Virus record (IMG/VR): IMGVR_UViG_2690316086_000008 | Direction: 5' to 3' (one strand) | Length of the DNA: 4,744 nucleotides | DNA from: a virus | Lineage: Duplodnaviria; Heunggongvirae; Uroviricota; Caudoviricetes | In this document: positions 2,555 to 3,244 of the stretch, piece by piece | How positions within the stretch are numbered: the stretch's first letter is position 1 | Layout: the number at the start of each line of letters is the position of its first letter | Position numbers and translations under genes: made by a program | The notes under the pieces: model-generated | Seen by the model: the letters and a program-made list of their open reading frames with translations, nothing else | Told to the model about the DNA's origin: nothing | The model's database searches: none

Positions 2555-3244
2555 TTACACCGTGACCTGAAATTCCAGGGTTGCACGGTAACAGCGGTTT
2601 TCCGGAATATAGCTCTGCATTTCACTGACGGATCCCGGGGCCAGCAGCATTATGGCTTCACGGGCGTCCTGACGTATCTGACGCGCCTGCGTCACAGTCC
2701 CGGCATAAACGTCTATCTGCACCGACACTGAGGACTCCGCCTGCCCGCCCATCACGTCCGCCGACACCGATGAAATCAGGCTGAAAACCACCCACGGAAG
2801 CGCCACCGACGGCCTGCCATCCAGCAGGGGGACCACATACGGGTACACCTGTGCCGCCTGTTCACTGCGCACATCAAATGCCGGGCGCACAAACGGGTGC
2901 GGTGGCATATTCACGGTCCCCATTTCCACAAACCGCCAGTAGAAAGCATTGCGCGGGTTATCCGCCTTCATGGTGTTATCGCTGTTACCGGTGTCCGGAT
3001 TAACACCACGGATATGGACACCGGATTCCATCCCGCCATCGCGGGAGCACCGGGAAAGGACCACCACATTGCGGCGCAGTTTTCCCCTGCGTACCGGTGC
3101 CCGTGACACCACTTCTTCTTTCAGCACATTCGCACCCGCACGGGTTGCCTCACGCAGCACCCGGTTATTTTCCGCACCACTCAGAAGCTGCAAATCGCGG
3201 CTGATGTCCTCCAGCCCCGAAAAATCCAGCAGGGTTTCGATCAT
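2555..3244 (-). CDS. Two-domain tail completion protein: N-terminal HK97 gp10-like domain joined to a C-terminal tail-terminator-like (lambda gpU-like) domain, 229 aa
   Basis: ATG at 3244..3242 overlaps the upstream stop (ATGA), with GGAGG at 3256..3252. N-terminal about 125 aa (LLDFSGLEDISRDLQLL...NRVLREATRAGANVLKEEVVSRAPVRRGKLRR...HIRGVNPDTGNS...NAFYWRFVEMGT.NMPPHPFVRPAFD) matches the HK97 gp10 tail-component pattern. C-terminal about 100 aa (VYPYVVPLLDGRPSVALPWVVFSLISS...SVSVQIDVYAGTVTQARQIRQDAREAI...CYRATLEFQV) resembles tail-terminator proteins, including a DGRP motif as in lambda gpU. No stop separates the halves. TAA at 2557..2555. Confidence 0.75.
   Translation of the reverse strand: MIETLLDFSGLEDISRDLQLLSGAENNRVLREATRAGANVLKEEVVSRAPVRRGKLRRNVVVLSRCSRDGGMESGVHIRGVNPDTGNSDNTMKADNPRNAFYWRFVEMGTVNMPPHPFVRPAFDVRSEQAAQVYPYVVPLLDGRPSVALPWVVFSLISSVSADVMGGQAESSVSVQIDVYAGTVTQARQIRQDAREAIMLLAPGSVSEMQSYIPENRCYRATLEFQVTV

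Follow-up and report, generated by a model that had tools for sequence, protein, structure and literature searches.

Gene context of the locus

The window (by which we mean the whole stretch of DNA analysed here, 4,744 nt long) carries a run of siphophage late genes, all of them on the minus strand, which ends in the start of the tape measure gene. Along that strand there lie a repeat-containing ORF taken from the ORF list (3924-4718), the gene of a gp6-like head-tail connector recognized by Pfam (PF05135; 3601..3927), the gene of the head closure protein (Phage_HCP in Pfam; ORF list, 3241..3591), the 229-aa ORF which is the subject of this work (2555..3244), the gene of the major tail tube protein (Pfam and PGAP; 1780..2496), and two tail chaperone genes from the ORF list and Pfam, Phage_TAC_1 (1400-1774) and Phage_tail_T (1095-1376). 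The major tail tube protein is 238 aa long and has a C-terminal Ig-like domain (Ig_2/Ig_3/I-set). A mechanically called ORF of 281 aa (1780-2625, minus strand) overstates this gene and overlaps the 3' end of the 229-aa ORF; the annotated start of the major tail gene is at 2496 (MSALYERS...). The order connector, head closure, gp10, terminator, major tail, G/GT chaperones and tape measure is shared by phage BP-4795, Stx1/Stx2-converting phages and E. coli prophages.

The 229-aa ORF has the head closure gene as its upstream neighbour and the major tail gene as its downstream one, begins with ATG and, according to the ORF listing, contains no internal stops. The stop codon of the head closure gene overlaps this ATG in the tetranucleotide ATGA, so that translation of the ORF should stay coupled to the late operon. 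Its product is 100% identical to the GenBank proteins BCS71714.1, BCS74300.1, EFA0158365.1 and EFH5851601.1, named 'DUF3168 domain-containing protein'.

Domain composition of the ORF

The preliminary description of this DNA held that a single ORF joins a gp10-like and a terminator-like domain, and proposed that residues 1-125 and 126-229 be scanned separately. The ORF listing, the scans of the two halves and PHROGs bear this out. Residues 1-125 match the Pfam HMM PF04883 (HK97-gp10_like) with 41 bits (39-41 bits over all Pfam scans of the protein) at a cut-off of 21.4, and residues 126-229, scanned alone, match PF11367 (Tail_completion_gp17) with 31.3 bits (E = 2.4e-7) at a cut-off of 24.5. 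TIGR01725 matches residues 9-133 with 71.9 bits versus a cut-off of 30.8, and PHROGs assigns residues 1-132 to phrog_5, 'tail completion or Neck1' (E = 1.4e-28), and residues 130-228 to phrog_347, 'tail terminator' (E = 9e-13). The sequences VYP, LDGRP and LPWVVF, which had been singled out as terminator-like, all lie inside the terminator part, and neither a stop nor an ATG start was found at the seam, as had been stated. The domain boundary, placed by the preliminary description at residues 125/126, has to be moved: the actual seam is at residues 132/133, i.e., at positions 2846-2851 of the window.

Accordingly divided, the ORF consists of three pieces, all on the minus strand: a part from an HK97-gp10-family tail completion / Neck1 gene (residues 1-131, 2852..3244; delimited by alignment A1, PF04883 and TIGR01725), which lies between the head closure gene and the tail terminator sequence; a junction of six nucleotides (2846..2851), delimited by alignment with intact relatives, where the coding strand reads CAGGTG and encodes Q132-V133; and a part from a tail terminator gene (PF11367 / DUF3168 / 'gp17'; residues 134-229 and the stop codon, 2555..2845), delimited by alignment, profile and model. 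The peptide at the seam is ..SEQAAQVYPYVVPLLDGR... As a technical observation, PF11367 was not listed at E <= 0.1 in an hmmscan of the entire 229-aa protein and was recovered when the halves were scanned apart; the second domain of such chimeras can thus be masked in whole-protein scans.

A 98-bp deletion at a six-nucleotide repeat

The window was compared with strain CAU16175 and phage BP-4795 in a three-way alignment. Against these intact relatives it has one gap, of exactly 98 bp, and it differs from CAU16175 by 1 mismatch in 690 nt. The relatives possess an HK97-gp10-family gene of 447 bp (148 aa) and a 'gp17'/DUF3168/tail terminator gene of 345 bp (114 aa); in BP-4795 these are ORF62 and ORF63, with ~99% nucleotide identity to the window on the flanks of the seam. 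In the BP-4795-type arrangement the two genes share 4 nt, ATGA, whereas the window lacks the 98 bp that comprise the 3' end of gp10, this overlap and the 5' end of the terminator gene.

The hexanucleotide CAGGTG stands at both breakpoints of the intact sequence, which reads ...GGCGGCA followed by CAGGTGGCG... on the left and ...GGCGGG followed by CAGGTGTAC... on the right, and a single copy of it survives at 2846-2851 of the window. Filler DNA is absent from the seam, and the flanks are otherwise near-identical to those of the intact relatives; these are the marks of a microhomology deletion. Of the gp10 protein, residues 1-131 are kept (to 133 with the shared QV included), and of the terminator, residues 17-114, so the former has been deprived of the last 15 residues of the 148-aa intact protein (AIARMNRAIDEVLRR) and the latter of the first 16 residues of its 114-aa counterpart (MTEADLYPHLAHLAGG). 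Relative to gp10 the terminator gene occupies the +2 frame, and as 98 is 2 modulo 3, what remains reads as one chain of 229 aa.

In a lambdoid (BP-4795-like) E. coli prophage, the 98 bp dropped out between the two copies of CAGGTG in a way that looks like replication slippage or illegitimate recombination, and the residual gp10 and terminator sequences, being now in frame, read through as the 229-aa chimera. With the late operon switched on, translation of the chimera would still begin at the gp10 start. Any particles of the carrier prophage would need a tail completion protein (TCP) and a terminator from co-resident related prophages. The origin of the chimera by a deletion that joined two normally separate, known tail genes can be stated with very high confidence.

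Rarity and reality of the allele

Megablast with positions 2400-3400 of the window against 5,426 complete RefSeq E. coli genomes returned matches in 1,250 records, nearly all of them in two pieces and over ~1,100 bp versus the 1,001 of the query. Among the 5,426 genomes, the only one to give a one-piece alignment of 100% identity was E. coli O103 ML775. The 92 matching phage records (Stx1/Stx2-converting phages, BP-4795) likewise align in two pieces, and the seam is present in none of them. A 40-mer specific for the seam occurs in one place in 1 of the 5,426 genomes, again ML775; in the same set, a flanking 100-mer occurs in 2,896 places in 1,240 genomes. A seam 30-mer was found neither in JGI metagenome contigs nor in IMG/VR (0 contigs), and a 30-mer from the deleted segment, i.e., from the intact overlap, is present in 114 IMG/VR contigs. 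A comparison of homologous prophages for split and fused versions, which the preliminary description had proposed, thus finds the split form overwhelmingly commoner and the fused one very rare.

The exact 229-aa protein is encoded in about two dozen E. coli contigs from several independent assemblies. We confirmed the seam at eight loci in seven assemblies (L001 and L004-L010); the complete chromosomes that carry it are those of ML775 and AP024475.1. As the same junction recurs in independent assemblies, it is not an assembly error, and the seam is a genuine, inherited, rare allele. That two genes have been merged by a sequencing or assembly artefact, as the preliminary description had thought possible, is extremely improbable: the allele is rare, and two other fused proteins (P0002, P0003) do come from metagenome contigs of 1.5-2.3 kb that may be chimeric assemblies, but the identical seam stands in at least eight records and seven assemblies of different projects, the two complete chromosomes included, and a clean loss of 98 bp between 6-bp repeats is atypical of homopolymer or collapse errors.

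Carrier prophages and copying of the allele

In ML775 the allele is carried by an effector-carrying lambdoid prophage located beside prfC, with NleG, DUF1076, sodC and lom. In this prophage gpL and the tail fibre gene are both frameshifted, there is an insertion of the IS66 family and TerS is short, and PGAP marks the gp10 part of the chimera as a pseudogene ('incomplete; missing C-terminus'). ML775 contains two more gp10-terminator matches, both without the seam, and intact copies are therefore probably available in trans.

Over its full 4,744 nt, the window shares 99.3-99.85% identity with most carriers. In one of them (L010), the seam lies inside an identity island of ~750 bp in a background of 93.7% identity. 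In AP024475.1, a strain whose serotype and context are known from gene calls only, the allele is present in two prophages, L004 (5160607-5181296) and L005 (2427818-2448507), which are 100% identical over a block of ~11 kb reaching from the capsid to the tape measure genes and 3-6% diverged on its sides. Judging by this pattern, the block clearly points to gene conversion between co-resident lambdoid prophages. Given such a recombination signature, the second copy in AP024475.1 requires no viable phage. We also considered that two copies in one genome might mean that a phage had propagated with the chimera, and rejected this, as the 11-kb tract is 100% identical within prophages that are 3-6% diverged.

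The gpL frameshift of ML775 is absent in other carriers, namely both prophages of AP024475.1, where gpL is 232 aa long. Since lesions of ML775 such as this one are missing there, the deletion can occur in a prophage that shows no obvious decay of this kind.

Structural elements lost from the two proteins

The tail completion half lacks the end of the protein. Residues 134-148 of the intact TCP hold the invariant R137, N139, A141, I142, D143 and L146, and all six are absent from the chimera; TIGR01725 is covered at model positions 2-110 of 120 by the chimera and at positions 1-120 by the intact protein P0012. AlphaFold2 modelled the intact gp10 with low confidence (pLDDT 39.5), and the secondary-structure pattern alone was used. 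The predicted pattern, with helices at residues 9-24 and 28-48, a hairpin, and helices at 97-106 and 125-147, agrees with the description of 80alpha gp51. According to this prediction, the last helix, ~23 residues long, would be shortened by ~15, and the chimera does not contain a full-length TCP with the conserved C-terminal helix. The PDB sequence matches of gp10 were spurious repeats to designed 'Bagel' beta-propeller proteins and were discarded.

As for the terminator half, its fold was predicted from an intact homologue of 98% identity (P0136), for which AlphaFold2 reached a pLDDT of 89.7. The model has N-terminal helices at residues 3-10 and 13-16 (block pLDDT 92-97), followed by a sheet and a second helix, and shows the fold of terminators, in which two helices flank a sheet of four strands. 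A PDB sequence search with the intact terminator found nothing; Foldseek with the P0136 model against the PDB retrieved solved tail terminators with a probability of 1.00, namely those of phiXa (9lbn_K), the SaPI1 neck (9mu3_D) and T5 (p142, 8bcp), and further lambda gpU (3fz2/8iyd), R4C (8gtf) and RcGTA (6tba). Mapped onto this model, the C-terminal half of the chimera is a gpU-type terminator without the first helix, in which the sheet and the helix at 69-86 would be kept. In an alignment of intact terminator homologues (n = 40), E3, L13, A14 and G16 do not vary and Y7 hardly does; the terminator N-terminus in the chimera is incomplete, residues 1-16 having been deleted together with these four invariant positions. 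In the T5 terminator p142, the N-terminus takes part in the contact between subunits, and the protein stays monomeric when it bears an N-terminal tag (PMC11784142). The combined alignment built to model the whole chimera (A3) was set aside as unreliable, as it misplaced gp10 C-termini onto terminator columns.

Other fusions and lesions in the same gene row

When 5.8 billion proteins were searched by a word index, a few other fused proteins came up, each of them rare or a singleton and each with its own seam. For three of these, the DNA was compared with a near-identical intact relative. In CP027546.1 (L012) 152 bp have been deleted at the microhomology ACCCGT, in the Logan assembly ERR10376504 (L011) 95 bp at GGAACTGGCCG, and in E. 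albertii (L013) 182 bp at TCAGGCT; in the window, the corresponding values are 98 bp and CAGGTG. All four deletions are 2 modulo 3, as this is needed for them to be visible as a fused protein. The idea that four independent in-frame fusions testify to selection was rejected as a matter of ascertainment: a protein search sees in-frame cases only, and other lesions of the same genes abound in databases, including read-through alleles, internal duplications, internal deletions and 3' frameshifts.

In an exhaustive HMMER scan, 1.84 billion representatives at 50% identity yielded 1,453 matches, and the best 150 of these each match the query either at residues 1-~133 or at ~130-229; among these 150, none of which exceeds 176 aa, there is no protein that covers the two halves together. 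Judged by these 150 and by the four different seams, the TCP-terminator fusion is not an established architecture, and its seam is not conserved across diverged lineages.

Apparent fusions of other genes of the row were met as well. A head-closure::terminator chimera of 129 aa (P0166, ..IRIWVRGQ followed by AESSVSVQIDVY..) has lost, by an in-frame deletion, all of gp10 together with half of the terminator. Head-closure::gp10 fusions occur sporadically (P0007, P0009, P0010, P0013 and P0070; 214-264 aa, PF05521 and PF04883), and in phrog_23409, a profile of 264 positions, the gp10 matches fall at positions 117-249. It seems that apparent fusions arise repeatedly in this gene row by read-through across its ATGA overlaps.

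Possible function of the chimeric product

The best explanation of the locus, and a very probable one, is that the 98-bp deletion at CAGGTG has left a chimera in a prophage, with a product that is crippled or devoid of function. Such a product in a decaying prophage is the most likely state of affairs, and we infer the loss of function with good confidence. The structural arguments are as follows. In the neck of 80alpha/SaPI1, one copy of the TCP resides within the lumen, where the helices at its N- and C-termini form a bundle with three helices of the tape measure protein and its loop caps the DNA end (PMC11661146). The terminator of the same neck forms a hexameric ring with minimal TCP contact (PMC11661146). 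A covalent TCP-terminator chain, in which the two are present 1:1, conflicts with the 1:6 stoichiometry of 80alpha and with the topology of lumen versus ring. The published structures would thus argue against the chimera working as a single chain; they hold for 80alpha, the only phage for which the location and stoichiometry of the TCP are known, that of the HK97-type TCP being not established (PMC11661146). What counts against a loss of function is that the frame is open, with the native start and translational coupling retained, and that the allele occurs in several strains, in two sequence backgrounds and twice in one genome.

It is quite unlikely that the locus yields two truncated products instead, a C-terminally altered TCP and a 93-aa terminator initiated at an in-frame GTG (window 2836), with partial activity in one or both of them. 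At the same locus in ML775, PGAP takes this GTG for the start of a truncated 'gp17' (a CDS of 282 bp), and a Shine-Dalgarno-like AGGTG is present 9 nt upstream of it; however, no stop codon precedes the GTG, and ribosomes on the chimera therefore read on past it, and a re-initiated terminator would be devoid of 20 N-terminal residues, including the whole conserved helix.

That the chimera is not inert, acting either as a tethered TCP-terminator or as a dominant-negative terminator subunit which poisons the tail assembly of co-resident phages, we consider very unlikely. Four in-frame fusions at different microhomologies and the recombinational spread of the allele would be compatible with such activity. 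A dominant-negative subunit would mean inter-prophage interference, directed against near-identical co-resident lambdoid phages. A working tether would mean that the C-terminus of an HK97-type TCP adjoins the N-terminus of the terminator and that extra copies of the TCP are tolerated.

Another proposition is that the chimera is a functional bifunctional tether of tail completion and terminator activities, kept by selection, and we regard it as highly improbable. The in-frame ORF with its native start and coupling is in agreement with it, but the conserved terminal helices are missing from both proteins, and a 1:1 chain does not fit the stoichiometry and topology seen in 80alpha. That the chimera is present in about two dozen contigs, and twice within a single genome in separate prophages, might also be taken for selection; yet the seam is in none of the 92 matching phage records and in no IMG/VR contig, and the second copy in AP024475.1 is explained by the 11-kb gene-conversion tract. 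As to the four independent in-frame gp10::terminator fusions in databases, their number is subject to the ascertainment bias described above, frameshifted or damaged alleles of both genes exist, each fusion is rare or a singleton with its own seam and a near-identical split relative, and none of the best 150 matches among the 1.84 billion representatives spans both halves.

Relation to known systems

By its membership in PF04883 and TIGR01725, the N-terminal part of the chimera belongs with lambda gpZ, SPP1 gp16.1, HK97 gp10 and 80alpha gp51 (TCP, Ne1), and it occupies the same place as these proteins, between the head closure and terminator genes. It differs from them in that a terminator domain stands in place of ~15 residues of the predicted C-terminal helix, which has ~23 in all; in the 80alpha TCP, this helix is part of a five-helix bundle with the tape measure protein (PMC11661146). 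The C-terminal part likewise shares PF11367 with lambda gpU, SPP1 gp17, T5 p142 and 80alpha gp52 (terminator, Tc1). Unlike terminators of the gpU type, it has no N-terminal helix (1-16) and carries an N-terminal extension of 131 aa. Mutants of lambda in gene U are known for tails of excessive length.

It is well documented that EHEC harbours lambdoid prophages which are defective and yet interact (Asadulghani et al., 2009, PMC2669165). The prophages described here resemble that pool, the carrier being multiply lesioned and identical blocks being common to co-resident prophages; the published work is a defect catalogue of the O157 Sakai prophages (PMC2669165). Events of this kind are known already, as are the two protein families, and the locus has been flagged as damaged by PGAP. 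The locus is a case of ordinary decay in a prophage, and its ORF does not represent an evolved fusion protein. The preliminary description had considered it a possible natural fusion that would bear on the coupling of tail termination and head attachment. This holds to the extent that the allele is a real genomic one; however, both domains are truncated by the deletion, and unless the chimera is functional it has no bearing on the coupling of tail termination and head joining. It calls for caution, as an ORF joining adjacent structural domains may be a recent in-frame deletion and not an informative fusion, and near-identical relatives settle this question within a few steps. The locus also provides a small, clean example of the decay of EHEC-type lambdoid prophages via microhomology deletions and an example of the copying of a lesion between co-resident prophages through gene conversion.

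Other features of the late-gene run

The 58-nt gap between the stop of the terminator gene and the start of the major tail gene contains a terminator-like hairpin, AACCCGC CGCGT GCGGGTT followed by TTTTATTATC (window 2517-2535, minus strand); a scan for such hairpins found 1, versus 0.8 expected in shuffles. Ahead of the stop codon of Phage_TAC_1 (...AGA AAA AAG TAG) there is a slippery A AAA AAG (window 1403-1409, minus strand), and a -1 slip at this site enters the Phage_tail_T ORF directly (..KKVARPEIRFLMRLALRLGR..). The pair of tail chaperone genes looks like a programmed -1 frameshift of the lambda G/GT type.

The ORF at 3924-4718, upstream of the connector gene, has no convincing Pfam match. 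Within it lies a tandem repeat of 162 bp (54 aa), with at least 2.2 copies of 94% identity (window 4390-4744) and running off the end of the window. The repeat ORF is 407 aa long in most relatives and 299 aa in L007, hence the number of repeats varies between strains. Upstream of position 4744, at ~8081 in L005, the portal ORF (454 aa) and the 407-aa repeat ORF overlap, with a run of 5 G. This two-ORF portal form, which PGAP labels 'frameshifted portal', is found in most strains and in phage BP-4795, and L010 has one ORF of 753 aa with a run of 6 G. The difference could be homopolymer variation, or a programmed frameshift giving a long form of the portal.
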